Below are positions 20,766-50,039 of a stretch of DNA of 64,000 nt, piece by piece. Both the position numbers and the translations under genes were made by a program. How positions within the stretch are numbered: the stretch's first letter is position 1; every line of letters begins with the position of its first letter. The notes under the pieces were generated by a model. It worked only from the letters and a program-made list of their open reading frames with translations. It ran no database searches and was not told the DNA's origin. The stretch comes from Schmidtea polychroa. Taxonomy: Eukaryota. The stretch is taken from NCBI GenBank assembly GCA_044892525.1, contig CM097886.1, positions 121,334,001-121,398,000 of the forward strand, read 5' to 3'.

Positions 20766-20771
20766 TTTATT
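20766..20771 (-). terminator. Candidate polyadenylation signal AATAAA in the LTR
   Basis: tttatt on plus, ~130 nt downstream of the LTR ORF stop and ~420 nt from the LTR end. Confidence 0.55.
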
Positions 20772-20901
20772 TCAAACATTGCAATACAGGCGCGTCGTAA
20801 TTTATACATCAGAATTAGAATAAGAGAAAACACAAGGACAGGAAACGATATTAGTTGATTCAGGACTCTCCGACGGATGAGGTCATCTCACGGGAAAATC
20901 C

Positions 20902-29139: not shown

Positions 29140-30702
29140 TTATATTTGTGGATTTGGAGGGCACTGCATATTCCAGGCCTCCATCCACCGTTCTTGGCTC
29201 ATTTTACTGGGCCTTTTTACTTGTTGTTGAAGATTTCTGGCTCTGATCATTTCGAGTTTGTTACGCTGTTGTTTATCTCGGATTATTTTTATCGTTCCCC
29301 CCGTTATAGTTATGAACGCTCCGGTTATTATTATTCCGCTGATCCATATCATCTGCTTTACGCTGATGATCTCTGGGTTTTCATTGTTTATCACTGTACT
29401 CGTTGTTTCCGCATTTCTTTCTTTCTCTGTTTGGCTTTTCCCTTTCTCCAGCCCTCGTATTCTTGTTATTTCCTCATTGATCCCTTCTTTTGCCATTTTT
29501 TGTATTTTTTCCATTTCCTCTTCTGATACGTAATTATCTTGGTTTTTCTCATCGGTCTTCTGGCGTTTTCCTTCCTCGTCTTCTCCGTCATTGATCTTTC
29601 TTTTCTTTCCCCTTTTCCCAGGATATCGTCGGCATTCCTTTTCTGGTCTTTTTCTCACGATACAGACCGTGTATTCCTTTGGCGGTTGTTGTTGTGTTAC
29701 GTATTGTAAACAGTCTTCGCCTGGTCCTAGCCTTGAAATACATACTTTGTGTTCTTTCCTTGGTTGGAGTTGTGTTATCACTACTTCACCTCCTTTACCT
29801 AGGTGCACCTCTTTCCATTTAACTTTCGTTATTCTCTTCCCGTTTCGGTGTTGGTATGCTTCTTGTATTCCCACTTCCGTTATCGGTTCTGTGTCCTCGT
29901 TCATCAACACTAATCTCCGATATGCTCTAGACATGCATCTCCCCAGTATACACCTTTCCTTTAAATCCCACTCCTCCTTCAGGTCCCATTGTTGCTCTTG
30001 CCCTTGCTTTTTCTTTTTTTGCTTTAGCTCCTCCTCTTTGTTGTCGTGGTTCTCCGCTTCTTTAGTCTCTTTTAACGTTCTCGTCTCTCCATGGGCTGTT
30101 ACTAACTCTATCATGGTTAGGACAATTATCATTAGTATCATATTTGTTTCTATTTCTTTGTTGGTGAAAGGTAGGCATACCCTCTGTTTTCCATTATTCG
30201 GTTTTTCCTCCTCTTTCATCTTGTTTCCCGGGTTGTTTCCGTCCTTTCCCGTACCTGGGTCTTTGTTTTCCGGGTTATTCTCTTCCGGTTTTCTTTTCTC
30301 TTTATCCTCTTTTCGACCCTTTCCGTCATTATCATCGAATTTATCTCCCCCACTGTCGTTTAAAATGTCGTCCTCGACATTTATATCGTTTAATAATCTT
30401 CGGTATGCTGTTAGTACTCTGTTTCTTGCTAGTTTAGCCTCGAATTCGAACTCTTTTCTCCCGGTTGCTGCGTGTCTTTTCCGGTTCCATTCCTTTACTA
30501 GTTCTCTCAGTTGGATACGGCGGTGTTTTCCAATTCGTTGTTGTTCGTTTTGGTTTTTCGTGAATCTCAGGTCTTCTCTATTCAATACAATTAGTATGAT
30601 TTTAGGTGTCCCCCCTTTAGTTAATGTATTTTTGATCATTGCGTTTTCACCGTTCTCATAAAATTCGTTTACGTTAATCGCGTATTTATTACTTTGCGGC
30701 AC
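29140..30702 (-). CDS. Terminal polyprotein segment: ankyrin-like start, internal signal-like segment, FN3-like motif, TM helix
   Basis: In frame with the upstream ORF across a single TAG; MILMIIVLTMIELVTAHG; ITQLQPRKEHKVCI; MIWISGIIITGAFITITGG. Confidence 0.65.
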   Translation of the reverse strand: MPQSNKYAINVNEFYENGENAMIKNTLTKGGTPKIILIVLNREDLRFTKNQNEQQRIGKHRRIQLRELVKEWNRKRHAATGRKEFEFEAKLARNRVLTAYRRLLNDINVEDDILNDSGGDKFDDNDGKGRKEDKEKRKPEENNPENKDPGTGKDGNNPGNKMKEEEKPNNGKQRVCLPFTNKEIETNMILMIIVLTMIELVTAHGETRTLKETKEAENHDNKEEELKQKKKKQGQEQQWDLKEEWDLKERCILGRCMSRAYRRLVLMNEDTEPITEVGIQEAYQHRNGKRITKVKWKEVHLGKGGEVVITQLQPRKEHKVCISRLGPGEDCLQYVTQQQPPKEYTVCIVRKRPEKECRRYPGKRGKKRKINDGEDEEGKRQKTDEKNQDNYVSEEEMEKIQKMAKEGINEEITRIRGLEKGKSQTEKERNAETTSTVINNENPEIISVKQMIWISGIIITGAFITITGGTIKIIRDKQQRNKLEMIRARNLQQQVKRPSKMSQERWMEAWNMQCPPNPQI

Positions 30703-30705
30703 TCT

Positions 30706-31257
30706 CTATGTTAATAATAATTTCATGGCTTCTAGATTTTCCCGTACCGTATTCCACTGAAAATGAGATGTGTTTTTGCAAATATTTTCAACTTCTTCCT
30801 TTGTCGCATTTTTGCATATGAACCTGATCATTTCTAGGTTCGGCTGTATGGTTGCCCAGTCCATTGTGGAGTTTCCTTCGGTTGACTTTTCATCTAGTCT
30901 TGATCCTGATTGATGTAGTATATGGAGTGTTTTTGGGTGTATTTTCGTTATAGCTGCATACATCATGGCGGTTTCGCCTTGTTCGTTTTTCGTGTTGGTT
31001 TCCTCGCCCAAATCTCTGAGGATTCTTATTATCGTTATTGCTCGGTTTTCCTTTGCTGCTAATATTGTTTGATCCCTTGCGTATGTGTGTACGGTCTTTA
31101 TTTTTTTAGCCAATATCATTTCGTCTGATAACTCTAGCATTTCCTCAAAGAATACTTCTTTCGCTTTGCGTATTATTGTTTCTTGATCTAAATTTCTTGG
31201 TTTCGTTTTGATGACGTTATTCGCTGCAATTTGATTCGTTTGCGACTTCGGTTCTTT
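30706..31257 (-). CDS. Ankyrin-repeat segment, in-frame continuation of pol after a single TGA
   Basis: EQGETAMMYAA, TEGNSTMDWAT; 39 open codons link the TGA at 31258-31260 to the ATG at 31140. Confidence 0.75.
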   Translation of the reverse strand, partial: KEPKSQTNQIAANNVIKTKPRNLDQETIIRKAKEVFFEEMLELSDEMILAKKIKTVHTYARDQTILAAKENRAITIIRILRDLGEETNTKNEQGETAMMYAAITKIHPKTLHILHQSGSRLDEKSTEGNSTMDWATIQPNLEMIRFICKNATKEEVENICKNTSHFQWNTVRENLEAMKLLLT

Positions 31258-34080
31258 TCACACCCCTTTCTTTATTCTTGTTTTCTTTCCGGTTGAATTA
31301 TTGATTCGTTCTTCTGCTGTAAGTACTTGAATAATATCTAAGTAATTCTCGCGAATGTTGTTCATTGTGTCCATCATATATAATACACTTACCGTTTCCC
31401 AATATTTATTTCGTGCTTGGTTAATGAATTGGAATATTGATTTTTCGAATGTGTCAATTCGCTTTTTTAATAACTGCTCATCTTTATGATTTGTGAATTC
31501 TATCCCTCGTTCTATCAATTGTTTTGGGATTTCGAATAAATGATGCCCTTTCATGGCTTCTCTCATAAGCGTGTTTTCTCCTCTCGTGAATGCTTCGTTT
31601 ACGTTGATCATGTAGTCATTTTTGATTGGATTTCTCCATGTAATTAATATTCCGGTAATTGTTGTCAGTTTTTCTTTGATTGCTGTTAATAGGCCGTCAT
31701 GCATGTTTCCGACTTCTCGATTATCCTCATATGCTAGTAGTTCCATCAACGTCGTAAATGCTTCGGAACTTTTCCCTTCAATTGCATGATGCAGTGCGTT
31801 TTTCTGATTTCGATCTTGTGTGGTTATCTTTGATCCGGTGTCAAGTAATGCGATTATAATGTCTTTTGTTTTGCCTCTGTTCGCCGCTATCATTAATGGT
31901 GTGTAACCTTGGTTGTTTTCTTGTTCTGTTGATCTCTTGCAGTCGTGAAATGCTTCTATTGTTTCTAGTATTTGTTCGTTGTTACCTACTTTCATGAGTT
32001 TATGTAATGGTGTGTCTCCATAATGATCTGTTATGGTAAATAATATTGGCCATTGACTTTTAACTACTCGTAGCAACGGATGTGTCCTCTCTCTGTTTGC
32101 ATAGTTTTCGATCATAGTCAGTAGACCTCCTAATATTTCGAAGTCTAGTCTATCTTTCGCCCATCCGGGTATTTTAATTTTTACCTCTTTTACGATCTTT
32201 TCAGCTTCCGATGGTTGGATACCTAATCGTCCAGTCGTTGGTTCTGCGAGTTGCTGCATCATGTTCATTCTGTAGGTTTGCGAACGTGTAGTTAACGTAC
32301 GGCCTTCTGGTTGACTGGTGGCTGTTTTTGGGATTGGTTTACATCGTGCCACATTTACGTATATTGGCCTGGTGAACGGGTTATTTACCAATTTTACTCT
32401 TACGTTCGTTTCTCCCACAAATAAGATCTCATATGGTCCCTTTCCGTTCCGTCGCAACTTTTTAGTGGTTCCTGGAATCAGTTCTGGTGTTTCTATCATT
32501 ACCCAATCACCTGTTTGAAAAGTATGTTGCTTCACGTTTTTCTTTCGATCGTGCAATTCTTTATAACTTTCCTGGTAGAACTTGATGTTTAATCCCGCAG
32601 TTTCCCAAATTTCCTGCATTCTTTCCTTGAATTTTGTGACATAATCGTCTATCTCCATATATTGCGATATTGGTGGTTGATATTCTAGGTCCATTGGCAT
32701 GTTACATTCTCTTCCGTACATTAATTTAAATGGGCTCATTTTCGTTGATGCATGAATTGACATTCTATAAGCCATAAGGCATAGGTTTATATATTCGTCC
32801 CAATCTCGTTGGTGACGGTCGACGTAATTTGACAACATTTGGATAAGTGTTCCGTTAAATCTTTCTGTCATCCCGTTGGTTTGAGGGTGATACGGTGATG
32901 TTCTCAACTTTGCGATTTTGAAGTAATTGGTTACCTCGCTCATGATCTCACTCATGAAATTTGTGCCTTGATCCGTTAGTATTTGCTTCGGCGTTCCATA
33001 TCGGCAACATATGTCTTCTACTAAGATTTTCGCGATTGTTTTAGCTTTTTGATCTGGTATAGCGAATGCCTCTGGGAATTTTGTGAGGTAATCCGTAATT
33101 ACCAAAATATAAATATTTCCTTTATCCGATTCGGGTAATGGACCAACTACGTCCATTGATATCATTGTCATTGGTTCTATTGGTACCGGCATTGGCGTTA
33201 AAGGTGCTTTCCATTTCGATCCAGTGTTTTTCCTTGTTGCACAGGTTAGGCAATTTTTCACCCATTCCGTTACGTCTTCTGTTAGGGTGGGCCAGAAACA
33301 TTTCTGTTTCATTCTCGCTAACGTCTTTTTTGATGACATGTGTCCTCCCAATCTTCCGTCGTGATATTGCGTTAGTAGCTCTTTTCGTCTGTTTTCCGGT
33401 ATGCACATTAATCGCTTTTCTCCATCCATTATTAGTAACCAATCTTTCTCGATAATGTATCGGTGTCGATGTTTATCCATATGTTCTTTTAATTTTTGGT
33501 CTTTCCCATACACTTCGGTTTTTCCGGTTTTTACATAATCGATAATCTGTTTCAGTTCTGGGTCTTCTTGTTGGTCCTTTCGCAGTTGGCAAAAATCCAA
33601 ATCTTCCGCTACTATTAAGCATATGCGTTGCATTTCTGAATCTACCAAATCTGGAAAAATAGACCTCGACATACAATCGGCGTTGGCGTTTGCTCTTCCT
33701 GCTTTGAATTTTATAAATGGAGAGTATTCTTGCAATTGCATGGCCCATCTCATTAGTCTACTTGACGCTTCTTTATGTTGCCCTAACCACACCAATGGTT
33801 GATGATCTGTGGTTATGCATATCTCATGTCCCCATAGTAAATATCGGAAGTGTTTGATGGCTTGTATTATGGCCAGTGCTTCTCTTTCGGTTACCGAATA
33901 GTTTTTCTCATGCTTTTTGAACGTTCGACTGTAATATCCGATGACTCTCTCTTTTCCTTCGTCATCCAGTTGCCCTAAAATCGCTCCTGCTGCATATCCG
34001 CTTGCGTCCGTTGCCGATAGAAATGGCTTCTTAAAATCTGGGTGTACGAGGATTGGTGCTTCAATCAATTTATCTCTCAA
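31258..34080 (-). CDS. pol: Pol 3' part: RNase H, integrase (HHCC, DDE, GPY/F) and ankyrin repeats
   Basis: ATDASG, TDHQPL, YHD...GH...CLTC, SMDVVGP, TDQGTNF, ERFNGTL, GKGPYEI, then GDTPLH, GYTPLMIAA, KNALHHAI. Confidence 0.95.
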   Translation of the reverse strand: MRDKLIEAPILVHPDFKKPFLSATDASGYAAGAILGQLDDEGKERVIGYYSRTFKKHEKNYSVTEREALAIIQAIKHFRYLLWGHEICITTDHQPLVWLGQHKEASSRLMRWAMQLQEYSPFIKFKAGRANANADCMSRSIFPDLVDSEMQRICLIVAEDLDFCQLRKDQQEDPELKQIIDYVKTGKTEVYGKDQKLKEHMDKHRHRYIIEKDWLLIMDGEKRLMCIPENRRKELLTQYHDGRLGGHMSSKKTLARMKQKCFWPTLTEDVTEWVKNCLTCATRKNTGSKWKAPLTPMPVPIEPMTMISMDVVGPLPESDKGNIYILVITDYLTKFPEAFAIPDQKAKTIAKILVEDICCRYGTPKQILTDQGTNFMSEIMSEVTNYFKIAKLRTSPYHPQTNGMTERFNGTLIQMLSNYVDRHQRDWDEYINLCLMAYRMSIHASTKMSPFKLMYGRECNMPMDLEYQPPISQYMEIDDYVTKFKERMQEIWETAGLNIKFYQESYKELHDRKKNVKQHTFQTGDWVMIETPELIPGTTKKLRRNGKGPYEILFVGETNVRVKLVNNPFTRPIYVNVARCKPIPKTATSQPEGRTLTTRSQTYRMNMMQQLAEPTTGRLGIQPSEAEKIVKEVKIKIPGWAKDRLDFEILGGLLTMIENYANRERTHPLLRVVKSQWPILFTITDHYGDTPLHKLMKVGNNEQILETIEAFHDCKRSTEQENNQGYTPLMIAANRGKTKDIIIALLDTGSKITTQDRNQKNALHHAIEGKSSEAFTTLMELLAYEDNREVGNMHDGLLTAIKEKLTTITGILITWRNPIKNDYMINVNEAFTRGENTLMREAMKGHHLFEIPKQLIERGIEFTNHKDEQLLKKRIDTFEKSIFQFINQARNKYWETVSVLYMMDTMNNIRENYLDIIQVLTAEERINNSTGKKTRIKKGV

Positions 34081-37000
34081 CGTTTCGAATGCCTCCTGTT
34101 GTTCTTTTCCCCCAAGTGAACGAGATATCTTTTTTCACTAACTCTTGGATTGGTTTTGCAATTCCTGCATAATTTTTGATGAATTTTCGATAGTATCCAC
34201 ATAATCCTAGGAACTCTTGCACTTGCGTAACGGTTTTTGGTGCTGGACATGTTTTTATTTTTTCGATGTTTCTTGGATCTGACTCTTTTCCTTTGGCTGA
34301 CACTATGTGTCCTAAAAACGTGACTTTTTCTTTTGCCCAATCACATTTTGAAGGTTTGAGCTTGAGTTTCCATTGTCGCAATCGAATGAATACATTTCGG
34401 ATATCCTCCAGATGTTGTTCAAATGTTGCTGAATAGATTAGCAAATCATCAATATATACCATACATTGTTTGATTCCATGAGTGACAAAGTTCATGCACC
34501 TTTGAAATGATGCTGGAGCGTTGGTCAGTCCGAATGGCATTTTCCTGAACTGATATAGATCTCGTCCCAACGTGAAAGCGGTCTTCTCTTTGTCCTCATC
34601 TTTGACTTTAATCTGCCAGTATCCACTTTTTAAATCTAAAGAAGTAAAATATGCTGCCTCCTGCAACATGAGTAACATTTCATTAATGTCTGGCAGTGGG
34701 TAGGTATCCCTCTTGGTTACTGCGTTTAACTTTCGATAATCGATACAGAATCTTTGCGTGCCATCTTTCTTTTTCACCATGACCACTGGAAACTGCCAAG
34801 GTGAGCAACTTGGTTCGATTACTTTTGCATCTAGCATTTTTTGCACTTCTGCTTCGGCTATTTCTTTTTGCATCTCCGCTAGTTTGTATGGTCTTAATGT
34901 GATTGGAGTTTCATCTATCAGGGGGATTGCATGTAGGGTAACATCACATGTACCCAAGTCTAAATCCGAAATGGCAAATATATCTTTGTATTCTACTAAT
35001 AATCGGGGCAATTTTGTCTTTTCGGCATCTGTTAGCAACGTGCTATCTATGGTCCATAATGCGTCGTCTTTGGTTCTTTCGTTGGTCACTTTTGGTAGTT
35101 CTATATCCATCATTGGAGTCAATTTTCCCAATCTTTCATTTTCGTAAATGATTTTGTCTTCCTCTTCGAAATTCGTGATGTTGATCGGTATCACTCCTTC
35201 TTGGTTTATTGTTATTATTTCTCTAGCGAGCGGTAATTCTCGTCGCTTTTCGAATGACTTACTTGGTTCGAAAATAACTTCCCCTTCCATTCCCGTATCC
35301 ACCTTTATCTGACAGATCATCTGTGATTTTGCTGGTACGATTATTTTTTCTGGACATCTGATTACTGCATTCATTTTGCATATTCTGCCGGTTTTATCCT
35401 TTAAGCACATTGTTTGTAAGTCAATTACTACTTCTTTTAGTAGTTCTGGCATTAAATCTGTTCCGATTATGCATGGTACACTCAGTTGTGGTATCACCGC
35501 TAAATACGTTTCAATCTCGTTATCCTGGTATTTCAAGGTGGTCCACCATCTCCCGACCACGTCTACTGTTTCTTTACTGCATGCTATGATGTGGATTGTT
35601 GTTGACTCGATATCTTTCCAATACCTACTGGGAATTTGATTATTTGCTATTGCTGATACGTTAGCTCCGGTGTCTATCATAGCATTTGTTTCTTTCCCAT
35701 TGATTTGAATCATGACTGTTACTGTCGGACCTCCAGGTAAAATCATGGCGGCTATCGACCGTACATCGTCCGCTTGATCTACACTTCTGGTTCTTCTAGT
35801 TGGCGGAAAATTCATTCCTGGTTGACTTGGTAACTGTGGATACATATTTTGTGTCATGGTCAAGGCTGCTTGTTGTCCGACGATGTCCGGTGGTATATAA
35901 CTTCCGTTGGCTATCCAGGTGTTTGTCTTATCCTTCTCCCAATATGGGGCTGTTTCTATTTGTTTTTCGTTCGGGTTTCTGCTTGGATATGGGTATTTAT
36001 TATTCCCTTCATCATCGTCATCGCTATCACTGTTAGATGATTGGTTTCTAAATCTATCGAAGAACTTTGGCTTACTCTTTTTCAATTGTCTTCTCGTTGC
36101 TTCATCATACATGGTTTTTCGGAATCGTCTACCTATTTCCTCGTCTGTCCCTTTAATCTTGGTTAAGATTTTAATCAATCGCTTTATTCGATGAATATCT
36201 TTCGAGTGACCATGTAATACCATAGTTTTTGCTAAAAATGGTAGAAACCCTACTATCATTTTCCAATTTACTTTCTTTTCTCTCTTGTAAATATCAAAAC
36301 AGGCTAGCATTTGTGTCAATATTACTCTAACAATTTGAATTATGAGTATGATTCCCAATATTCCTGCTATCATTTGTCCGAATACCAAGAATCTTCCCCA
36401 CATTGCTTTCATCATATTTGACGTGGCTTGTTGGAAATGGTCTGGTGATAATAGTAACTCGTAATTTGGACCTGATTGGAAATTTGTTCCGCCGGTTATT
36501 GTAACCATACTTGACAAGATTGACTCTCGCCTGGCTGGGAAAAGTATGTTTAGCCGTGCTGTTTCTAGATCCTCTGCTGAATACATACCTCCGTTTGATA
36601 CGTCTACGGGTTTGAAGTCTTGTTCCATGGCAAGTTCTATTAATCCAAACTTCTTAGGTTCCTCCACTGGGGCCTTTACTGGTAACATTATCCATTTTCC
36701 GTCGGGTCTTTCGTACAATGGTCCGTATGCATTGGAACAGTTAAAGAGATTTGGATAGAAACCCAATGGATTCATAATTCTGGTGATTAGTTGGACAAAT
36801 CGATTTTGTCCTTTGTAACGAATTTCCAACTCATTTGCACATTTCCCCGGTGGTATGGTGGGTTTTTCCGGCATTCGTGCAAACGTCTTGGTGCATGCAT
36901 ATGTATACATCACTTCGCCCACCATTCTACCAAAATGTCCGTCTGGTAATGGGAGTGATGACATCGTATTATCAGGGTGCGTTATCGCGATTGCTAGTTT

Positions 37001-38299
37001 TGTTTTCAGTATCTCTTTATTCAATGAACAATCGTTTTGTATAAGGTCGTAATATACTTTTTGTAGCGTCGTTTGTCCGCGATGGAATAAAAAATCCATT
37101 TTGTTATTGGCGTATAGGTACAATTTGACGTCCTCCATGGCTATCTTTCCCACTGCTCTATCTATTATCTGCCTTGACATGTAGATGCCTGCGTAGTTGG
37201 TCTTGTAGACGATACTGTCGCATTTGGTGGTCTCCTTCTCTCTGATGAATCTCATACCTAGGTCTGGATCGTCTGTGATCAGTGCCGTTGGTGTTTTTTG
37301 TGTTGTGAGCCTTTTTTCTTTGGGCGATGGTGGAACTGGTTTTCCATTTCGCATTCTTATTTTTTCATTTCCGTCCTCGTCAGCTTCGTTCTCATAAATT
37401 TCTCCTTTTACTTCATTGAATAGCGCACTTTTCAACAATTGGAGTCTGCATTTTTGGGTGTTAGCTTCATATATTATGGTCGAAACCCCCGTCTTACATA
37501 CGTTTTCCGAAGCTCTACATGCCGGGTTGGTTTTCATTTGGTAATTATTAGCGTCAAATTGTGCTTCGTATTCCTTTAACTCAACTGTATATGACTCGAT
37601 TACTACTACCCCCGATATCGCCTCTCCTCTGATCGTATACGTACCTCCGTTACATGTTCCATCCGTTGATTTTACGCGTCCGGCTACATAAATGCTTTCG
37701 GTTTTAATCATTCCACTTTGCCCGTGTATCGTTACTCCGTCTCGGATCCTCATTGCTCCGGTTCTAAACAGTTCTTTGCAATCCTCTCTTTGTATGGGTA
37801 CTATTTCTTTATCCAATCCGGGTAGTATGAGAGTTGAATATGAATATTGTCCGCAGTAATACGCCAACACACGTTTTGATACTACGCACTCCTTTGCTAG
37901 CGTCCTGATGAAATCCGATTCTTGATACACGTGATATGAGACCTTTTTGTTCACGATATCTAATTTATTTGGTGAAGCTTGTCTACATTCCTCGATATCT
38001 CCCAGTGAGTTTTTATCCCTCATTATGGAATTATTGCAGTCATAGATCGTGAAACCTGTTGCTCCACTGGTGCATAACATCCATATCATCATAGTCATCA
38101 TTAACGAGTTTATTGATGCTTTCCTGCTGGCTGGATCTTTCATTGGTAATTCCCATTCTAGTTCATTCAGCAACTTTTTTAATCTGACTTGCATTGATCT
38201 TTCCTGTTCGTTTTTTCGTGGCGCTTGGATGAGTCTCTTCCATCCTCCAGCACGGATAATATGTGGTTCGATAGTATTTTCTATGATTGCCACTGTCAT
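34070..38299 (-). CDS. pol: Polyprotein segment: end of Bcl-2-like domain, chuvirus-type glycoprotein (~38120-36300), aspartic protease, reverse transcriptase; +1 insertion at ~34105-34113
   Basis: GGW motif; signal-like segment then FTIYDC; Cys pattern and TM typical of chuvirus-type G; MIDTGA (~35670); YPLP, MPFGL, YIDD (34446-34457). Removing one base from GGGGGAAAA restores FTWGKEQQEAFETLRD. Confidence 0.92.
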   Translation of the reverse strand: MTVAIIENTIEPHIIRAGGWKRLIQAPRKNEQERSMQVRLKKLLNELEWELPMKDPASRKASINSLMMTMMIWMLCTSGATGFTIYDCNNSIMRDKNSLGDIEECRQASPNKLDIVNKKVSYHVYQESDFIRTLAKECVVSKRVLAYYCGQYSYSTLILPGLDKEIVPIQREDCKELFRTGAMRIRDGVTIHGQSGMIKTESIYVAGRVKSTDGTCNGGTYTIRGEAISGVVVIESYTVELKEYEAQFDANNYQMKTNPACRASENVCKTGVSTIIYEANTQKCRLQLLKSALFNEVKGEIYENEADEDGNEKIRMRNGKPVPPSPKEKRLTTQKTPTALITDDPDLGMRFIREKETTKCDSIVYKTNYAGIYMSRQIIDRAVGKIAMEDVKLYLYANNKMDFLFHRGQTTLQKVYYDLIQNDCSLNKEILKTKLAIAITHPDNTMSSLPLPDGHFGRMVGEVMYTYACTKTFARMPEKPTIPPGKCANELEIRYKGQNRFVQLITRIMNPLGFYPNLFNCSNAYGPLYERPDGKWIMLPVKAPVEEPKKFGLIELAMEQDFKPVDVSNGGMYSAEDLETARLNILFPARRESILSSMVTITGGTNFQSGPNYELLLSPDHFQQATSNMMKAMWGRFLVFGQMIAGILGIILIIQIVRVILTQMLACFDIYKREKKVNWKMIVGFLPFLAKTMVLHGHSKDIHRIKRLIKILTKIKGTDEEIGRRFRKTMYDEATRRQLKKSKPKFFDRFRNQSSNSDSDDDDEGNNKYPYPSRNPNEKQIETAPYWEKDKTNTWIANGSYIPPDIVGQQAALTMTQNMYPQLPSQPGMNFPPTRRTRSVDQADDVRSIAAMILPGGPTVTVMIQINGKETNAMIDTGANVSAIANNQIPSRYWKDIESTTIHIIACSKETVDVVGRWWTTLKYQDNEIETYLAVIPQLSVPCIIGTDLMPELLKEVVIDLQTMCLKDKTGRICKMNAVIRCPEKIIVPAKSQMICQIKVDTGMEGEVIFEPSKSFEKRRELPLAREIITINQEGVIPINITNFEEEDKIIYENERLGKLTPMMDIELPKVTNERTKDDALWTIDSTLLTDAEKTKLPRLLVEYKDIFAISDLDLGTCDVTLHAIPLIDETPITLRPYKLAEMQKEIAEAEVQKMLDAKVIEPSCSPWQFPVVMVKKKDGTQRFCIDYRKLNAVTKRDTYPLPDINEMLLMLQEAAYFTSLDLKSGYWQIKVKDEDKEKTAFTLGRDLYQFRKMPFGLTNAPASFQRCMNFVTHGIKQCMVYIDDLLIYSATFEQHLEDIRNVFIRLRQWKLKLKPSKCDWAKEKVTFLGHIVSAKGKESDPRNIEKIKTCPAPKTVTQVQEFLGLCGYYRKFIKNYAGIAKPIQELVKKDISFTWGKRTTGGIRNVER

Positions 38300-38317
38300 T
38301 TCTACGTGATTTGCAAA

Positions 38318-41086
38318 TTATTTATTGGGTATTTTCCTCGCAGCTAATCCCATCAAATTATACATCAAATAAGTTATTACCACTAGATGGTGTTCATCAT
38401 CGTTTGCGTTCGTTGTGAGTTGTTCGATTACTCTCCTTGTTTCATCCCAGTCCGTTTTAGTGGTTTTTGTTTTTTCTTTGATTAACTTTGGGATTATTCC
38501 TGATACGATGTGCCATAGTTGTCGAACTTCCACGCTTGCTACTTTCCGTTGCCACAAACGTCTGAGTTGCGGGTTTGTTATTATTAACATATCTTTTATT
38601 AATTCCCGTATCCACTTTTCTCCTCTCTCGATCGTTGGTTGGGCTTCTTTCAGATCCCATACTATTTTATCTAACATTTCCAATCTGACTTGTCCTTGTT
38701 CTTGCTTTAATTGTTCTCTGGTTTTAAATTCAGGTTTTTCTCCTTGTTTCTTGGGTCTCCCTTTTGCCCGTTTTTCCATTGTTGTTCCGGCTTCTCTGGT
38801 ATTTTCGTAACTCGGATTTCTTTCATTATCTGTTCTGGGCAATGAGCTGTCATTATTTCTTAGCCATTCATTCCATTTGTCTATTATTTTATCGGTTTGA
38901 CCTTCCGGAGTTATTCTTGTCGGTTCTCTTTGTTTCTTGAATTGTTCATCCGTTTCCGTTTCTGTCGTATTGTCGATGATTTCTTCGATATTTAGTTTCT
39001 CCGGTTGTTGATAACTCGTCGACGGTCTGCTGGTTGTCCAAATCTCGGCTCCCGTCGGCCATCTCACTAATAGCGGCGATCTTTCCCCAGGTTCATCGTC
39101 ACTATCTTCTAGGATAATCTCCTCGACCTCCTCGGTTTCATTCGATTTACTTGGTGCTTTGTTCGGACTTGGGGTGCTCAAACTACCTTTTGTTGGTTTA
39201 CCATTTTTACTTTTCCTTTTTAACGGTTTCCCCAACGTTTCTGCCATTGTCAATACGTTTGTCTCTTCCAACCTCATAGGTGTTATTCCTACGTCCGCAT
39301 TATCATCTAATGATTTTCCTTGCAGCTGTAGATGGAATGGGGTTTCGTACGCCAATTTCTTTTTTAATTCTCTGATTTTTGTGGTTGGATGTACCTCTAC
39401 TTCCTCAACGTTTTTATCAGGGTATTTAATTCGAATTCGATATCTTTCTTGGGTGTCCTCTGACCATTCATGGTTTCGCCACTTCCCGATAATTTGCTCC
39501 AATTGTTCCGGGTACCATTCGTTGTATTGTCGGTATTCCTCTATAACTTTTACTATCTCTCTCAAATAGTGGATATTATCCGATATTTTTAGAATGAAGT
39601 TGGCCAGTGCTATCACTTGCCTTTTTTGATTCTTTGTTCCCGTCTCTAAGATATCGCCTAGTTGCTTATATCTCTCTTTCTCTTCTCGATCTCTCGCTTC
39701 CTTCGCCTCCTCACCGTCTATATCGGCATATTCACGTTCCTTTTTCCTCATCGCATGGATATGTCTGGCTTCATTTTCACTTTCTGATGTGACGTCCGTC
39801 TCGCTCTCGTCATCTGATGTCTGTTCCATTGCTTCCTCTTCATATTCTGGAGGTTCATCTTCTTCCTCCTCTGGCTCTTCATCCGTCTCCTCGATTTCTG
39901 TTTCTATGAAGATTCCTTTCTTGATTTCCCATTCCTTCTTTTCCGCGTTCCACACTCTTTCCCATGGGGTTCGTCTACAGGATCTGGTACTTAGTTTCGT
40001 TATTTTTCCTTGTAGTTCCTTTTCTTTTAACCATTGTTGGTGGATTTCAATTATTTCTACGGATTTCTGATATAACGTCTTCATCCGATCTCGTATCTCC
40101 TTTTGATAGGTTACATCCCTCGTTCGGAATTCATCCATTGGTACTATTCTGATTATTTGGTGATCAACCCACATGCCCATTTCACTTAATGAGGTGTCGT
40201 CTTCAGTTCGTAGTATTATTTTATCGTACATCATGACTATATCGTCTATCATACCATCGTCACTCTCGCTTCGTACTCTTTCCGTTATCTCTTGGTTTAT
40301 CCTTTCTACTAATTCGTCTACCGTGCTTTGATTACTGATTTTGATTCGTCGTTTTTCCTCATTTGGCAACCATATCGTTACTTCCAATTTTCTTGGTTGC
40401 GTTTCTTTTAACCGTCCATATTTGTGGATTAAATTGACGGTTCTCCAATCACTCATCCTGAGGAGTTCCGTATCGCGTAATCTGCTCATTAACTCGTGCA
40501 TCTCGGGGGCTCGTCTGGCTATGAGTAAATCCCAATTATCATCTACTTGTTCTTGAATTTGTTTGATGAGCTTGTCTAGGTTTCGTTTCAAAGTACATTG
40601 TTTTATTTGTTCCAATTTCAGTTTGATGTTAAAATCATATTCGGCCTTAGCGTCTTTAGCCCAATCATAGATATTGGCTGGTTGTTTCTCTTTGTGCAGC
40701 TTTAATATTTGGGTTTCTCCTGGCCATACCAGTGCGTCTACCAAGTGCATATCTGGTTTGATTTGCTCTCCTTGATATTGGTACAGGTACTCCTTTTTCC
40801 TCGAGCTACCTAAATGTTCTCGTATCCAATCGAAAAGTTCGTCGGTGACGGTATTTTTAACCCATATTCTTTCAAGTCCTTTACTTGTTCCGATTTTTAT
40901 TACATATCGCGTGGTATCGGCCTGCTTCATTTTTTCCATATACTTTTTTATTATCGACTTTTCCTCGTTTGGTATTAAATCTTTCTCGTTTCTTTCCAAT
41001 TTCATCACTTTCTGTACGAATCGTCTAAATGGTATTACATCGATGAACTCTTGGTTTCTCACTACCACTGGGAGTATTTCGGCTAC
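38318..41086 (-). CDS. Polyprotein segment with three ubiquitin-like domains, an acidic linker and the N-terminal part of a Bcl-2-like domain
   Basis: In frame with gag (single TGA) and with the next ORF (single TAA); UBL-like segments ~40910-40700, 40390-40140 and 39445-39245. Confidence 0.7.
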   Translation of the reverse strand, partial: VAEILPVVVRNQEFIDVIPFRRFVQKVMKLERNEKDLIPNEEKSIIKKYMEKMKQADTTRYVIKIGTSKGLERIWVKNTVTDELFDWIREHLGSSRKKEYLYQYQGEQIKPDMHLVDALVWPGETQILKLHKEKQPANIYDWAKDAKAEYDFNIKLKLEQIKQCTLKRNLDKLIKQIQEQVDDNWDLLIARRAPEMHELMSRLRDTELLRMSDWRTVNLIHKYGRLKETQPRKLEVTIWLPNEEKRRIKISNQSTVDELVERINQEITERVRSESDDGMIDDIVMMYDKIILRTEDDTSLSEMGMWVDHQIIRIVPMDEFRTRDVTYQKEIRDRMKTLYQKSVEIIEIHQQWLKEKELQGKITKLSTRSCRRTPWERVWNAEKKEWEIKKGIFIETEIEETDEEPEEEEDEPPEYEEEAMEQTSDDESETDVTSESENEARHIHAMRKKEREYADIDGEEAKEARDREEKERYKQLGDILETGTKNQKRQVIALANFILKISDNIHYLREIVKVIEEYRQYNEWYPEQLEQIIGKWRNHEWSEDTQERYRIRIKYPDKNVEEVEVHPTTKIRELKKKLAYETPFHLQLQGKSLDDNADVGITPMRLEETNVLTMAETLGKPLKRKSKNGKPTKGSLSTPSPNKAPSKSNETEEVEEIILEDSDDEPGERSPLLVRWPTGAEIWTTSRPSTSYQQPEKLNIEEIIDNTTETETDEQFKKQREPTRITPEGQTDKIIDKWNEWLRNNDSSLPRTDNERNPSYENTREAGTTMEKRAKGRPKKQGEKPEFKTREQLKQEQGQVRLEMLDKIVWDLKEAQPTIERGEKWIRELIKDMLIITNPQLRRLWQRKVASVEVRQLWHIVSGIIPKLIKEKTKTTKTDWDETRRVIEQLTTNANDDEHHLVVITYLMYNLMGLAARKIPNK

Positions 41087-43370
41087 TCATTTTATCGCTT
41101 CCTCTCTTTCTTTTCTCAATTGTATTTCGATATCCTCGTCCTCACTTTCGCTGGTTATCTCGCTTTCGCTTTCGCTTTCCTCTTTGGTTTCCCCTTTTGA
41201 CGGTTCGCCATCTTCGTTCAGCTGTAGTATTTCTCCCCCCAAACTGCTCACATAGTCTTCATCTGATGACGACGTACCTTTTGTCTCTTTCATCATGTTG
41301 ATTCGCAAATTACTCATCCTTGGTACTCGCTTTAGTTTCTTATTTTCGAATATCGTTGTTTCTTCGAATTCTAATTCTTGTAGTATTTTGTGGTTTAGGT
41401 GACTGGTTTGTTCCTGGTCTTTTTTACTATCATCTTTTGCCTCAGTTTTCGTTTTGTCATGTTCCTTTTCGATTTTGTCTTTTATCTTTTTCCAGAATAT
41501 TCTCTGAATTCTTTGGTTTCCTTTCAGTATCGTTGTTGGACCTTCCGTTCCGTTTTCTGTTGTTGTTTCTTTTACTTTTTCCGGTTCAGCCATCGGCACT
41601 ATTCTTGGGTTTTTCCCATAGTTGTAACAATATTGCTCTTTAACGTCCCTTATTAATCTCATCATATTTAGTCGTAAGGGTTGCCCTTGTCGTTGCTGGT
41701 CGCGTTCTTGTTTTATTCTCTCTTCTTCGGCCTGCAACCTTTGCCAATCCTGTGCATGTTGCTGTCTCTCGTAGTTGTTGATGTTTTCGGTGCTTCTCAT
41801 CATCCGTATATTCTGTGTTTGCTGAGGCGCCGGTTCCGGTCTTGGTCGCAGTAATTGATGCATCATCTGTTTCATTTGGGAGATTTCTTGCATGACGTTC
41901 ATTTGTTTCCCTTCACTGGGGTTACTTTGTCGTTGCGGATTCGACATATAATTATTATTCCGTTGTGGCGGTCGTTGTTGTTGGCCTCTTTCTCGGCATT
42001 CCCTAGATATATGGCCTGGTTGTCCGCAGTTAAAACATCCTCTCGTTTGGCATATATTCTCCGTATGCCCCCGTCGTCCGCAACGATTGCAATTTGCATT
42101 TCTATAACAATCTCTGTCCCAATGTCCTGATTTACCACAGGTTAGGCATTGTTTGTTGTCGTTCCCATTTCGTCGATTATTAAAATTATTCCCGTTATTT
42201 GGGTGGTTACGTTCGTTGTTATTCCCATTTGATCGTCCTTGTGGTGGTTTGAAAATTTGATGCGCTCCGGGTATGAATTGATTCATTTTTGGTTCTTGGT
42301 TATTGATATCTCCACCATCTGTTTTTACCATGGCTGTTGCTATCCTCCCATCCTCTTGCATAATATTCATTTGAGCTGGGAGGTGGAGCTCGCATCGTGT
42401 GGCCCAATCTATGGCCTCTTCCAACGTTTTACACATTTGGCATCCCACCGATGCTCTTACTTCTTCTCGGCGTAGTCCCTCTATGAAATAGCCGATCAAA
42501 TTTTCCTCTGGCAATTTCCCATTCATTGCTTTCTTTGCTAATCTCCGTAATTCACTTGCATATAATGTTATTGATTCATTGGTTCTCTGTTTTCTATTGG
42601 CTAGTTCGCCGAGTGCTTGATTTATTGGCTTGCTCGCTCCGAAAGTTTTCTTCAGAAATGTTTTGATATCTTCCCATTTATCTAATTTCGTGTCTCTCTC
42701 TTTAGCTTCTAAGTACACTTCCAATGCACTATCACATAAAAACAACGGCATTCTTTTGCTAACCGCTTCGGCTGTCCATCCACACACCGTGATATAGACC
42801 TCAAAGTTGGTTATAAACGTTGTCAATTTGTTTGCATTTCCGTTGAACAGTTCGCCTCTAAAGTTTTCTTTATACTCGTCGGTTTTTACCACATTCGTCA
42901 TGATTGGTTCTCGAGTTTCCACTGTTTCTTTTAAGTTATCTAATAACTGGGTTAGGTTATGGACGGATAGTTCTTCTGTGGATGCTGATAAACTGTTCGT
43001 GATATCTATTATACTTTCTCGGCTTTTCGCTCGCTTCGGGGTAAATTGGATTGTTGGGTTTTCTTTGTCGTCTATCAATATTCTGTTCGTCTCGTTAGGT
43101 CCTTGCGATGATCCTCTCCTGTGACGGGTTGATCTAGCTCTCTTGATGCTTTGCAGCTGATCTACTGAAAATAACGTATCGTATTGATTACTTGAGGATC
43201 GGAGTGTTCTTTGATTTGCCGTGACTTCTTCCTGTTACTCCTTTGTCTTTCCTTGGCTCCTTTCCGTTTGATCGGGTTCTGGATTGGTTATTTCTGGTTG
43301 GTTGTTGGTTTCTTCGAATTCCTTTTGCGCAGGTTCTGGATTGGCTTGCTTGACTGGATTGGTTGGATAT
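41087..43370 (-). CDS. gag: Gag (capsid-like domain and three CCHC knuckles); frame open from 43370 with one TAA at 43235-43237
   Basis: CLTCGKSGHWDRDC, CNRCGRRGHTENIC, CFNCGQPGHISREC; capsid-like FNGNANKLTTFITNFE...RKQRTNESITLYASELRRLA. Confidence 0.9.
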
Positions 43371-44083
43371 CTAAAATGAAAAAATGATCTCGTGTTGCAT
43401 CTGCTTACACGACTTCATCATTCTTTCTGCAGCATTCAAACACAGACACCTTTTAGGTTTCTGTTTGTGCTTCCCCTATTTTTTATGCAATTCCTTCCGC
43501 GGGTTATATTTTCCCATCAGCCCGTATTTTTCGTCGATTTTAAATTATCTATATGGGGTAGTAACAATTATCTATAGAGTCGTAATAATTATCTATCTTT
43601 AATACTTATAATATGAATAGGTCGTTGTCGGTCACTGCTTATTACCCCCCTTTATTTTCCTAATCCTTTTGCGCTATTGTCGCTATGTTACTTATCTTTT
43701 CGTCTTTACTATTTCTCACTCAGTTCTATTCTAGAACTAATAAAATTAATTTCCCCGGTTTAAACCAAAAAAAAATACTCCGTAGAGTTTCTCTACTTCA
43801 CTGGGATCCCTTTAATTAGTTAATTATTTCCTCTTCTGCTCATCATCTCTTTTCACTTATTCTTTGGTTCCACTGACTTTCTAATTCATTTTCCTCTTCC
43901 CTTACCCTTTCTCATTATAATCTTGTTATCATTTTCCACGAGCTCGTTTAATCCTCTCAATTCAAACTCCGGTAATTAATATTCAACTTGTTTCTAGCTA
44001 GCTTTAATATTCCATTCCACTGTTAACTTAAATACTATCTCATTGTAGCTTAAATGCTATCTCTCGTTTCTCTAGGCCTTTAC

Positions 44084-45885: not shown

Positions 45886-46446
45886 AAAATCATGTTGGGG
45901 CACTACTCGGTTGACCACCCTTAGTTCAACTTTCTAGCCTAGGGGATGAACGCCCGTTACGATTATACCTGTCATTACTGTGTCACCCCGAGCAGGGCCC
46001 GTACATAATCTATACTCCAACATAGCACCCGTGAATTGCTTCACGTTGGAACTGTGCTATGATGGCGAGGTGCCAGTGAGCAGGTGAGCCACCTCCTTCG
46101 GACTACTCCTCACTGAGACCCCGACTTCCTAACCCTGACTGCCGATAGAAGGACTTACGTCTACACATTCTGTCACCCTGTCGCCATACCCTTGGTTTGG
46201 ATTGCAAATTGAACAATACTCCTCGAATCTCAAAAACCTCAATGCTATTTACCACTCAATGTTAAATCCCTTATGAACGAAAAACAAAACCCGTATACAG
46301 ACAAAAATTGTTTATTTCAAACATTGCAATACAGGCGCGTCGTAATTTATACATCAGAATTAAAATAAGAGAAAACACAAGGACAGGAAACGATATTAGT
46401 TGATTCAGGACTCTCCGACGGATGAGGTCATCTCACGGGAAAATCC

Positions 46447-47196
46447 TCATTTTTCCCACTCGGAGTCGGCGAGTAACTCGTCCAAATCGAAGAATTCGGA
46501 GGCGTTTTCCTCCCACGTCACCCCAGCGGCAGATATGATCCGCCCTAGTGTTCTTGTTGTTAGGTCAATTACAGCAGGGACGTTATTGACATTACTCCCG
46601 AGGTCCGGCAGTTGCTTGGGCTGCTTCGCAGCTATTCGCTCACGCTGTTTCCTTTTGCGTTCAGCCCTTGATAGCTGCCGACGCTTTGGCTTGTTGGTCG
46701 ATGAATTGTTTGGGGCTACCGCCGATGTAGAGGCGACGTTAGGCAGTACCCGACTATTTCCAACAAAAACCACCTCTAGTTGGTCTGGCGAGAGTTGTGT
46801 TTCTACGCACGGCCGGCAAGGTTTTTTCGAAGGGAGCGACGATTTGGCAGAAGTATTATGGTGGGCCGGAAAGAGATTGTCGGCTTCACCGATGGGAATT
46901 TTCACTATCTTTCTAGTTGCCGCGGCCTGGATGTACACTTTATGCAGCGCCTCGGACTGCTCCTTGATCAAACTTCTTTGGGCACGACTCTCGGAGATTA
47001 GAGCGTCCCGGCAATGTTCACTTCGGTGTAATTTCTTTTGGGTCTCTTTCATCTGGGCGGGACTAAACCATGTCCCCTCTAACTCGTCTATCTTCTTTTT
47101 GTACCGTCCGATCTGGGTCTGCAGGTCCTTGATTATCGCGTTCTTGTCGGAACAAGAAAAACAGGGTCTGAGGACGGTTTTTGCAGTGGGTAACAT
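46447..47196 (-). CDS. LTR-encoded 249-aa protein, 5' LTR copy
   Basis: Same ORF as 20902-21651 with two amino-acid changes (P/A, E/D). Confidence 0.7.
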   Translation of the reverse strand: MLPTAKTVLRPCFSCSDKNAIIKDLQTQIGRYKKKIDELEGTWFSPAQMKETQKKLHRSEHCRDALISESRAQRSLIKEQSEALHKVYIQAAATRKIVKIPIGEADNLFPAHHNTSAKSSLPSKKPCRPCVETQLSPDQLEVVFVGNSRVLPNVASTSAVAPNNSSTNKPKRRQLSRAERKRKQRERIAAKQPKQLPDLGSNVNNVPAVIDLTTRTLGRIISAAGVTWEENASEFFDLDELLADSEWEK

Positions 47197-49284
47197 GTCT
47201 GCTAGCTAAGAAGAATAATAACACTAAATGGGATAGATCAAATTTAGAAAATCATCATTTTTCGCCACCATTCGTTAATCAATATTAGACATTTTTACAG
47301 GAAAAGAAAAACGGATTATTTATCAAGAGGGATTTCCTATGCCATCAACCTATGTGTACTCTGGGTGTTTATTCACTAGAAAATCAACTGATAACATTAG
47401 GCTTTACTTAACGAAGGTTGTACATCATTGTTAAAGAAAATGAAAATTACATGTTTAAGAGGAATTATTGATGACGGAAATTTTTCTTGAAGAGGGTAAA
47501 TAGCATTGAAAATTCAACCCGAACTAAATAATTACTAAGTGAAAATTTAGCTAATCATTATAATGATTTTATAGATAATTAGATAAGTTGGTTTTAATTC
47601 ATCATTAAGTAAAAATATTAAATTTTTGCAGTTCCAGTAATAGACTTGGATTAATTGAGTTGCATTTTGTTTGTATTTTATTTAGGCTTTCGATTATATT
47701 GTCTATAATTTATTATAATTTTGTTTTCAAATCTCACATTTATTTACTATTTTAAAATTAATTATTGAGTTGTTGGTGACTCGTGTTATCATCACTCATG
47801 TCTAGTGCTTTCGGTAAATAGCCGAGATTTTTATCTGACACACCCGGTGGACTTTTCTCAAGTTAGCCGTTCGCGGTGAAATATCTACTATCGGGTTAGA
47901 TGACTATGCAATCTCAAGGAACGTATCACCTGGAAGATAGACTCGTAGAATTATGGCTAGTGATATCCGTGTTATTATTGGTGAGCACCAGCATGTGGAC
48001 TTTGGCTATTAGAACTTGCAATGTGTGCATTTACACATGTGTGCGGGTACTCACTTCGTGAGACTCTTATCCTATTTGGCAGCTTGCATGAATCATCAGA
48101 TGTTATATTACACCGTGTTGAATTTCTATCTCTCGTGGAAATTTTGCATAGGCAGATTTTGCGTACCGCTATTACTGGATGTAATTCGTTTCGTAGACAA
48201 ACTGGTCAACTATTCAAGCTATAATTTCTACTCCCCTCATGGATTTTATCATCATCAACATGCCCACTGTCTATATCGAGTTGGAAATTTATTAACTATC
48301 GCTGGAAATACAATTCGACGAAATGCGGATATTCCATCATCCTCTGTGACATCTCTAAGACTCGGATTTTATTCCCATGGAGGGTCTATCGGATCAGTTA
48401 CCTCCCATCCTAACTTTGCATCAGTTGCCACAAACGTTTGGTATTCGATATACAAGGGAATGACATGTTTGATTGTTTTTATAAATACATTTTTCCTGAC
48501 TAGATTCATTATTATTTTATGGTTTATTATTTTTGAGAACTATTTGTTTGTCACAATTCACCACAAGTAGGTTTTTAGAGAGACGCAGCAAAGTTGATTG
48601 CACGTGATGGATATAGATGATGAAAGTAGCAGTTATGAAGATCCTTAGGCTGAAGGTTTCAGGAATAATTTCGAGTGGAATCATGAACGCAGATAATATG
48701 CTACAAATGATGTCCAGACTGATTTAACGGAAAATCCTGTATAGATCTTCAGATGATAGTACCAATTTCAATTTGATAAAGACAATAGTATGACGCCCTC
48801 AATCACTGTGCGAACTCTCGAACAAGATTTTTCCTCATATGACATCACTTCCCATTGCTTGATAGTTACCATCTCTCTACAGTATTGTTCACATATTTTA
48901 GTCGCATCTTCAGCGACGGACCCGTGAGGAAGCCCCCACATTACGGCCCGAATCAGCTGCGTGATTGAAAATCGCCATGTCCACCGGCTGAGCTCCCGAA
49001 GGCACCTCATACCATGACATGGAGTTTCTCAACGCCACGTTTCTCGGAAATTTATAATCATTAAATAATAATGCATGAAAATCAATCAGGTATCGAATCG
49101 AATAAATGGTTACTCGAAATTTACGTCGATTGTTAACTGTTTGATAATATCTCCTGGTTTCTAGATTGATTCTCGTACGCTGCTGCTGTTTACCTGTAAA
49201 GTTGGTTGTTTAACTGTAACTGTTAAAATTTATCTTACCTGTAAAGTTGGTTGTTTAACTGTAAGTTTATAATTTTTGTGTTTC

Positions 49285-49318
49285 CTTATATATTAATTTT
49301 TGATGTGTGCGGACCAAT
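49285..49318 (-). promoter_or_regulatory. Candidate LTR promoter: CCAAT box (49314-49318) and TATATAAG (49292-49285)
   Basis: Motifs read directly (also 23768-23772 and 23739-23746 in the 3' LTR); a 30-bp direct repeat with 45-bp period lies just downstream. Confidence 0.5.
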
Positions 49319-50039
49319 CAGAATTGAGTGCCGCTTAATTTTATTGCTTTAATTTATTTTTCTTGTTTTTGAGTTATTTTTTCCTATTTTCTTTATTTTT
49401 ATTGTGTTTTTTATTTATTTTCTTTAATTTCTTTATTATTTACTACATTTTACGTTATTTTTTGTCATTCTATTGTCCTATTTCAATTTTCCTTATTTTT
49501 ATATTTTTTGTTTTAACTCTTATTTTCTAATTTTTTATTTTTCTTATATCCTATTCTATTTTATTCTTAAATTTGTTTTGTTTTATTTTTATTTTAATTT
49601 AATTATGTTTAACCTAATTTCTTGGATACCCTTCGACTCAGCCCAACAGAATTTTAAATTTCTAATGAATTCGCCTTGGGTTAAAAACCGATCTTTATTT
49701 TATAATCTTTATAATCAAAACTTGTAGTTGTTATATGGAACCTTTATATACTACACGACCTTTTTCTTTAATTTAGAATTTTTCCGATTTCTTTAATATT
49801 GTACTGATATATCAACTAACGTTGTAAGTTTTCTTTTCCTTTTATAACAATTCCGCGAATAACTTCTTAATTGGTGTTTGATTTCGTATTATTTATTTTA
49901 TGATTTATTTTTTCGACTTTTTGTAATTCTCTAATTATTCAGAGAATTATTCTATATAGTACTATTTTAATTTTATAGTATCCTAAAAAAAATAATATTA
50001 AGAATAACTTTATAATGTTATTCCTATTACAATTACATA

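Follow-up and report, generated by a model that had tools for sequence, protein, structure and literature searches.

Can a retrotransposon keep a Bcl-2-derived domain inside its polyprotein, directly ahead of its envelope glycoprotein, and if so, what does a stop codon in the middle of that domain mean? The question is posed by a 64,000-nucleotide stretch of the Schmidtea polychroa genome (assembly GCA_044892525.1, contig CM097886.1, forward-strand positions 121,334,001 to 121,398,000; hereafter the window, whose coordinates are used throughout). Its minus strand carries a 29.3-kb long terminal repeat (LTR) element of the Ty3/Gypsy type (20348-49648), which by comparison with published descriptions is of Burro-type architecture. 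An earlier note, made from the sequence alone, had pointed to a Bcl-2-like domain hidden across an in-frame TAA of this element, and the peptide it quoted does lie in the minus-strand frame through 38740-38051, with the same frame on either side of the TAA. Here, we report that the segment 38650-38228 (-) is very probably a degenerate, strongly diverged Bcl-2-derived domain that was captured into the polyprotein. On balance, we favor the interpretation that this captured domain, fixed in frame in an env-bearing Ty3/Gypsy polyprotein of the Burro type, may serve to dampen host cell death.

Sister families point to Bcl-2 ancestry

With X placed at the stop, the window domain was matched by the Pfam Bcl-2 model (PF00452) at E 0.048-0.097 and 13.7-14.7 bits, and its family as a whole scored 13.7-15.2 bits, below the curated cut-off of 31.4 bits. 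The match to a Bcl-2 model that the earlier note had anticipated is therefore there, but at a sub-threshold score. The ancestry is argued by three further families of the same genome (781 Mb, with four large contigs), termed B, C and D. Family B was found through PF00452 itself: of 909 candidates in the genome search 150 were scored, many in frames of up to ∼3,090 amino acids (aa) and with ∼29 bits, and the 16 such loci retrieved by coordinate, together with L052, belong to this family. With PF00452 its copies score 28-33 bits, in part above the cut-off, and they share the layout of the window family, namely a basic RGRP patch, the GGW domain, a linker, a hydrophobic segment and the start of a glycoprotein. 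It was the glycoprotein, not Bcl-2, that led to families C and D; in both, GGW is present at the same position, 25-41 residues ahead of a signal-like segment.

A profile made from families B-D only, leaving out the window family, gave the window domain 22.5 bits, a score reached by none of 1,000 shuffled sequences (best 10.1 among the 989 reported), while the best segment that does not overlap the domain obtained 4.7 bits. In profile-profile comparison, the window family matched families B-D at 89.1%, and these in turn matched the host Bcl-2 genes at 95.7%. A profile of all four families matched Bcl-xL at E 0.002 over the half that holds Bcl-2 homology regions 1 and 2 (BH1 and BH2), with 60/60 rows among the matches listed being Bcl-xL or Bcl-2, and 23 of the 24 members of the four-family alignment matched PF00452 at E≤0.1 (best, 4e-7). 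It is these sister-family profiles that strengthen the case for the ancestry proposed before. The profile of the seven host Bcl-2 genes gave the window domain 14.4 bits, which again none of 1,000 shuffles reached. With 15-24% identity over ∼150 residues, a tree would be unable to resolve how and when the domain was captured.

The BH2 motif (W/x-I-x3-GGW) is found in the domain, the first tryptophan being a histidine in the window family and conserved as tryptophan in almost every row of families B-D. The two long frames of the element, 4,720 codons in all, contain a single GGW, which is kept in 30/30 top copies of the window family; its conservation among relatives, which the earlier note had made part of its refutation criterion, was borne out together with its presence in families B, C and D. 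In our alignment A1, GGW is invariant partly by construction, because the segments were excised around it and those containing stops discarded.

Relatives were also sought beyond this genome. With the domain as query, phmmer gave 0 matches in 1.84 billion representatives and the ESM Atlas none at ≥0.8, and a word-index search with alignment A1 gave one match among longer proteins and none among those of near length. The nearest outside relatives are MetaClust proteins with 50-54% identity over that part of the domain which is present in them. Since the related protein P0003 ends before BH2 and another, P0005, leaves the alignment before it, GGW can be followed within this genome only. As a separate observation, P0005, when compared with the window at 38350 and 35926, passes from the middle of the domain straight to a point close ahead of the protease and leaves env out, which might be a gene-model artefact or a splice; this joint was absent from four runs, whose data were all contigs and none of which was recorded as RNA. 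Contigs of presumed-RNA runs cover the domain, some ending in poly-T/A at A-rich places, and are at most a weak hint that the family is transcribed.

Fold, motifs and constraint

An AlphaFold2 model, computed with X in place of the stop and alignment A1 as input, was all-helical and of moderate quality (predicted local distance difference test, pLDDT, 59.9; predicted template modeling score, pTM, 0.49), with a long hydrophobic central helix and the TAA in a loop. Compared by VIA with 48,161 chains, it was most similar to BAK (Z 9.0; root-mean-square deviation, rmsd, 3.4; 125 residues aligned), followed by Bcl-xL (Z 8.3, rmsd 3.6, 120 aligned) and KsBcl-2 (Z 8.1, rmsd 3.5, 116 aligned), although a VIA Z below ∼13 may reflect merely a common helical arrangement, and values of this size are frequent among helical bundles. 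Of the 50 best VIA rows, 15 were Bcl-2 family members with 107-127 residues aligned; the other 35 aligned over 62-101. Foldseek against the PDB gave Bcl-2 family members in 41/41 rows among the matches listed (E at least 0.044), and in BFVD named Bcl-2 homologues ranked high (E at least 0.36). Modeling with the stop replaced, as suggested in the earlier note, thus returned a helical fold with Bcl-2 proteins as top matches, but at modest model confidence and weak E values.

Where it concerns motifs, the earlier note was right that BH2 is kept and BH1 poorly conserved. The BH1 region aligns as VIEQL with VVNELF of Bcl-xL. A BH3 motif, which in Bcl-2 proteins lies in helix 2 and follows the pattern L-x3-G-D, was not seen by eye in alignment A1. 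Failing by the cut-off, by BH1 and by BH3, the domain does not qualify as a canonical PF00452 member; by analogy, it may work like a viral-type Bcl-2 passenger outside the canonical family.

Several results weigh against a Bcl-2 origin or a Bcl-2-like function. The window domain by itself stays under the Pfam cut-off (14.7 versus 31.4 bits), and a profile of its own family, made from 21 close copies, matches no Bcl-2 protein in the PDB even at E≤10. The direct profile-profile match between the window family and the seven host Bcl-2 genes amounts to 35.8% over 49 columns, and an unrelated segment from the ankyrin region scores 15.2 bits with the host profile, above the 14.4 of the domain, which makes this profile less clean than that of families B-D. 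As for the fold, the model is weak and its input alignment includes family B, itself found through PF00452; an unrelated tubulin cofactor also attains Z 8.3 (72 residues aligned), and no Foldseek match in the PDB or BFVD attains E 0.001. The NWGR of BH1 is missing in all four families, being replaced by DDEHH in the window family, NRDK in B, DRDV in C and DKEV in D, and its glycine and arginine are described as mattering for most pro-survival members, the arginine pairing with the BH3 aspartate (PMC9027176, in the text available).

Constraint on the sequence speaks to translation. The ratio of nonsynonymous to synonymous substitution rates (dN/dS), taken within a set of 30 copies and from this set to 3 members of a subfamily that is more divergent, was 0.024-0.030 in the domain versus 0.063-0.067 in the glycoprotein, figures that come from non-independent pairs and from copies picked for their likeness to the domain region. 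The linkers are likewise low (0.013-0.069, with 0.013-0.014 in the linker after the domain), and the constraint therefore reveals a translated region and not a Bcl-2 function. Judged by these ratios, the domain region is translated under purifying selection in the family.

Two further predictions add little. A model of family B was poor (pLDDT 56.1, pTM 0.39), with a best VIA Z of 4.8, no Bcl-2 entry among the best 50 VIA rows, and Foldseek rows that were mostly Bcl-2 family at E of at least 2.4. A predicted complex between the domain and a BH3-like stretch from the host scored 0.02, run without alignment or controls, and carries no weight either way.

A signal-peptide-like junction with env

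The hydrophobic segment, expected by the earlier note about 45 residues on, begins 48 codons past the first G of GGW (at 38104); in families B-D the distance is 25-53 residues. In all four families its core lies directly before the glycoprotein start, which reads xx[AI]YDC. The core is 12-15 residues long, with a Kyte-Doolittle hydropathy of 1.8/1.5 in the window family (1.8 over 12 residues, against 3.0-3.4 in B-D) and 2.4-3.4 overall in families B-D. Small residues at -3 and -1 are the rule for cleavage by signal peptidase, and the segment has them. From its composition, the segment 38054..38104 looks like a glycoprotein signal peptide more than a tail anchor, and a cut between 38054 and 38053 is likely. 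The double use as signal and Bcl-2 anchor that had been suggested thus fares well on the side of the signal; its use as an anchor is possible and would be at the endoplasmic reticulum (ER).

Since this cut falls only on the C-terminal side, signal peptidase alone would not free the domain, contrary to the release proposed earlier, which would need a second cut upstream. After cleavage, the domain would stay fused to the ∼1,500 upstream residues of Gag and the ubiquitin-like region, unless a second protease acts. It would then form the end of a ∼1,700-residue Gag precursor tethered to the ER by the cut signal, much as the signal of E1 is reported to keep the core protein of hepatitis C virus (HCV) at the ER once signal peptidase has cut (PMC5402940).

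Possible roles of the domain

How might such a domain act? In copies with an open frame, the polyprotein would run from Gag through the ubiquitin-like region, the Bcl-2-like domain, the internal signal, the glycoprotein and its transmembrane helix to the protease, reverse transcriptase, RNase H and integrase, and on to the ankyrins. The internal signal would direct the glycoprotein into the ER and be followed by the signal-peptidase cut, leaving the N-terminal product tethered at the cytosolic face through the cut signal, in the manner of HCV core and the E1 signal; a free-standing domain would require trimming by the protease of the element or of the host. At the ER, the domain could then dampen host cell death during expression of the element by binding a host Bcl-2-family protein. 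Such binding would have to do without the canonical salt bridge of the BH1 arginine, on the model of myxoma M11L, which is reported to bind the Bak BH3 lacking it (PMC3847314, in the part available). An anti-apoptotic activity is plausible, though we would put it at somewhat less than even, and the full combination of a working, BH1-less death inhibitor anchored by the env signal peptide is doubtful. If true, a single signal-peptidase cut would yield the viral-type glycoprotein and at the same time anchor both Gag and an apoptosis inhibitor at the ER. The domain would also be a second anti-death module beside the inhibitor-of-apoptosis (IAP) module of Burro1, kept in four very divergent families of one genome.

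An unlikely alternative is that the domain has a Bcl-2 fold and serves as a signaling adaptor, dampening innate responses of the TRAF/NF-κB type together with the TRAF-like and ankyrin cargo of the element. Vaccinia A52 and B14 provide the precedent: as described in the available text of PMC3847314, both combine a Bcl-2 fold and a closed groove, and their target is NF-κB and not apoptosis. The lack of both NWGR and a BH3 motif fits this idea, as does the cargo, which includes ankyrin repeats and a RING-MATH TRAF-like open reading frame (ORF) at 27147-28586 (PF21355, E 1.5e-23). It is harder to square with a GGW that is invariant in 30/30 top copies and present in all four families, with BAK, Bcl-xL and KsBcl-2 as best structural matches, and with the description of A52 and B14 as cytosolic proteins without a transmembrane region (same source).

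Rather improbable, in our view, is that a Bcl-2-derived domain was co-opted for particle assembly, with domain and cut signal tying the Gag precursor to the ER near the glycoprotein in the manner of a matrix. In favor of this idea, every one of the four families examined has the domain directly ahead of the internal signal, the cut would leave it fused to Gag, HCV core is reported to be tethered at the ER by the E1 signal in a comparable way (PMC5402940), and constraint is as strong in the linker after the domain as in the domain itself (dN/dS 0.013-0.014). Against it, the linker varies from 25 to 53 residues across families; assembly would in any case be compatible with an anti-apoptotic role.

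That the domain is no Bcl-2 relative at all but a helical spacer, whose likeness to BH2 in GGW and in weak scores is coincidental, we consider improbable. A spacer would account for the sub-threshold PF00452 score, the own-family profile without any PDB match, an ankyrin-region segment that does equally well with the host profile, and a Z that is only moderate among helical bundles. It would not account for the shared position and the profile link to families B-D (89%; 22.5 bits, 0/1,000 shuffles), for family B copies at 28-33 bits with PF00452, some above the cut-off, or for the BCL2-like motif that earlier authors called at the same position in Burro. A captured Bcl-2-family domain remains our preferred reading, and it leaves the stop codon to be explained.

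The stop codon is a copy-level break

In the window copy, the minus-strand frame through 38740-38051 is interrupted by one TAA and open on either side, continuing for 1,415 codons beyond it. The ORFs 41086-38318 and 38317-34070 (-) lie in one frame, as does the Gag ORF upstream, such that Gag, the Bcl-2-like domain, the glycoprotein, the protease and the reverse transcriptase all share it. Between the outer ORF ends are 4,698 codons, interrupted by four stops and a single frame change; besides the TAA, these breaks are the TGA at 41089-41087, the stops at 31260-31258 and 30708-30706, and the frame change near 34100.

Other copies tell a different story. A DNA search of the genome gave 311 candidates, of which 40 were scored and 30 returned as loci; among these best 30 loci, 29/29 other copies have a sense codon at the TAA site. 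A protein search, with 150 of 715 candidates scored, found a stop anywhere inside the domain in 6 copies, all of which we inspected, and a stop at the TAA codon in two, namely the window copy and L086, whose stop is a different triplet (TGA and TAG are listed for L086). In 59/150 scored copies (hand count), the domain is held in an open frame of 4,732 aa, which from its length would span Gag to the ankyrin region. From the copy counts, together with the stops and the frame change of the window copy, it follows that the family makes one giant polyprotein which the window copy cannot. The TAA is almost certainly decay, a copy-level nonsense break and not design, and there is therefore nothing for readthrough to conceal; the domain is not "hidden" across a stop, and the window copy is already broken earlier, at 41089-41087. 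A programmed readthrough signal or a true gene end dividing two products, to which the stop in L086 and the 1,415 open codons beyond the TAA might have pointed, is ruled out among the scored candidates for all practical purposes by the 148/150 copies without a stop at this codon, the differing triplet in L086 and the three further stops and frame change of the window copy.

We also observed that the two LTRs of this copy differ at just 9 positions and 2 gaps, despite the four stops and the frame change in its coding region, and that the closest of the scored copies shares 94% identity with it over the domain. Taken together, these values suggest that the window copy may derive from an already defective template.

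Relation to Burro and to other Bcl-2-fold proteins

The domain and its place are already published for Burro (2018-2019). In dugesiid planarians, Burro was described as >30 kb with a 4,873-aa ORF, in which Grohme et al. 2018 noted a BCL2-like motif; a Ubi/SUMO-like module lies ahead of the motif, and between motif and protease sits an env in the same frame, related to the fusion proteins of mononegaviruses (PMC6431247; Burro is also treated in the available parts of PMC11410931 and PMC8532177). Novelty is low for this reason. What we add is that one genome holds four divergent versions, that the domain is under purifying selection, that BH1 is lost in all four, and that the junction with env looks like a signal peptide.

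Along the frame of the window element, the Pfam order is Gag/CCHC, ubiquitin/SUMO-like plus RA-like, Bcl-2-like, glycoprotein, aspartyl protease, reverse transcriptase, RNase H, integrase and ankyrins. With Burro (GYPSM1, Burro-1 to -4), it shares a size of ∼30 kb, long LTRs, a single polyprotein of ∼4,700-5,100 aa, a CCHC Gag, the Ubi/SUMO-like module, the BCL2-like motif, the in-frame env, the protease-to-integrase order, ankyrins and MATH/TRAF cargo. It differs in being slightly smaller (29.3 kb, versus >30 kb in S. mediterranea), in having its MATH/TRAF region in an ORF of its own, downstream of the polyprotein, and in that the window copy is broken. A BIR domain and a dUTPase-like spacer between protease and reverse transcriptase gave no Pfam match in the regions scanned (43235-44498 lay outside the scan); the published dUTPase-like call rests on HHpred (PMC6431247, in the part available).

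Of the systems with which the domain can be compared, Bcl-xL and BAK share with it the modeled helical bundle, the long hydrophobic central helix, the BH2-type GGW and the best profile and structure matches; unlike them, it lacks NWGR and a BH3 motif, falls below the Pfam cut-off, is embedded in a polyprotein and is followed 48 residues on by a signal-like stretch. Viral Bcl-2-fold proteins (myxoma M11L; vaccinia A52, B14 and N1) offer a parallel in motif decay with the fold probably kept and in accompanying host-control cargo, but are described as separate genes of large DNA viruses (PMC3847314, in the part available), whereas the window domain is part of a retroelement polyprotein. In HCV core-E1, too, a cytosolic domain carries at its end the signal peptide of the glycoprotein that follows, by which it would be kept at the ER once cut (PMC5402940); the analogy is one of topology and not of homology.

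Our literature search found no paper testing the BCL2-like domain of Burro, though Lee et al. 2026, Grohme et al. 2018 and the supplements may say more. The BIR-RING (IAP) module of Burro1 protects stem cells from apoptosis, according to the available text of PMC13465017, which cites Lee et al. 2026. If the Bcl-2-like domain is active, a retrotransposon would block host cell death at the Bcl-2 step besides the caspase step, which would bear on the persistence of very abundant elements in stem-cell-rich animals.

Coordinates and further features of the window

The LTRs are 3.76 kb long, the element has TGT...ACA ends and is flanked on either side by a 4-bp target duplication (GAAT), and its flanks are ∼70% A+T. 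Within the polyprotein, the ubiquitin/SUMO-like module matches PF11976 at E 1.9e-4 (21.6 bits, below the cut-off of 23.8) and the RA-like module PF00794 at E 0.0024.

Table 1. Positions of the main features of the Burro-type element in window coordinates
Feature	Position	Strand	Remark
5′ LTR	45893..49648	-	TGT...ACA; primer-binding-site-like TGG stretch adjoins
3′ LTR	20348..24102	-	99.7% identity to 5′ LTR (9 mismatches, 2 gaps)
Gag and CCHC knuckles	41087..43234	-	PF03732 E 3.8e-10, PF00098 E 5e-8; ended by TGA in the window copy
Ubiquitin/SUMO-like and RA-like modules, acidic linkers, N-terminal part of Bcl-2-like domain	38321..41086	-	Same frame as Gag
Bcl-2-like helical domain	38228..38650	-	Range from alignment of the model to BAK, Bcl-xL and KsBcl-2; disrupted in the window copy
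BH1-equivalent segment (VIEQL...DDEHHLVVI)	38375..38431	-	Aligned with Bcl-xL VVNELFRDGVNWGRIV; W-G-R absent
In-frame TAA	38320-38318	-	Inside the domain, between modeled helices 100-119 and 128-148
BH2-like segment with GGW at its end	38231..38275	-	GGW at 38248-38240
Signal-peptide-like segment	38054..38104	-	Preceded by basic residues; hydrophobic core of 12-15 residues, small residues at -3/-1
Monjiviricetes-type fusion glycoprotein (env)	36317..38053	-	PF24664 E 2e-68
C-terminal transmembrane helix of env	36373-36317	-	Hydropathy 2.67
Protease, reverse transcriptase, RNase H, integrase, ankyrin repeats, C-terminal region	29140..35720	-	Pfam and frames

Further features were seen within the element. 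Between the 5′ LTR and gag, an accessory ORF (45072-45629, -) ends in an IAP-type RING (PF13920, E 4e-10); a Pfam scan of 44499-45892 gave no BIR match there, and the ORF may be a BIR-less counterpart of the IAP module of Burro1. The leader from this ORF to gag holds a 40/80-bp tandem repeat array (44057-44536). The TRAF-like ORF downstream of the polyprotein (minus strand) appears complete, with RING, coiled coil and MATH. Near the end of the polyprotein, at 29140-30705 (-), two further hydrophobic segments were noticed by eye, with cysteine-bearing repeats between them, which suggests a second membrane-inserted product. A TGG-started stretch at 24103-24125 (-) resembles a second primer-binding site, and a purine tract is missing directly before the 3′ LTR.

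Other Bcl-2-like genes occur as well. Positions 11609-11788 (+) form the second exon of a separate, intron-containing Bcl-2-like gene, with a BH2-like motif and a tail anchor after an AG acceptor, though no first exon was seen; it is 75-82% like the multi-copy loci L046-L051, L059 and L060, in which an apparent "stop" is the TAG that closes a short intron (GTAA...TAG). A TBP-like ORF (13533-13997) and a weak A32-ATPase-like ORF (14121-14621) nearby suggest a Polinton/Maverick remnant. Elsewhere in the genome, a cluster of seven near-identical host-type Bcl-2 genes (L031-L037; G000:C4, 89.9-90.8 Mb) has NWGR and a BH3-like stretch. Lastly, the first 9,006 positions of the window contain a 3.5-kb inverted repeat (99.7%) that is not Bcl-2-related, each arm of which carries a TRAF-like RING/zf-TRAF ORF, a MATH ORF and an ORF with a hAT dimerisation domain.

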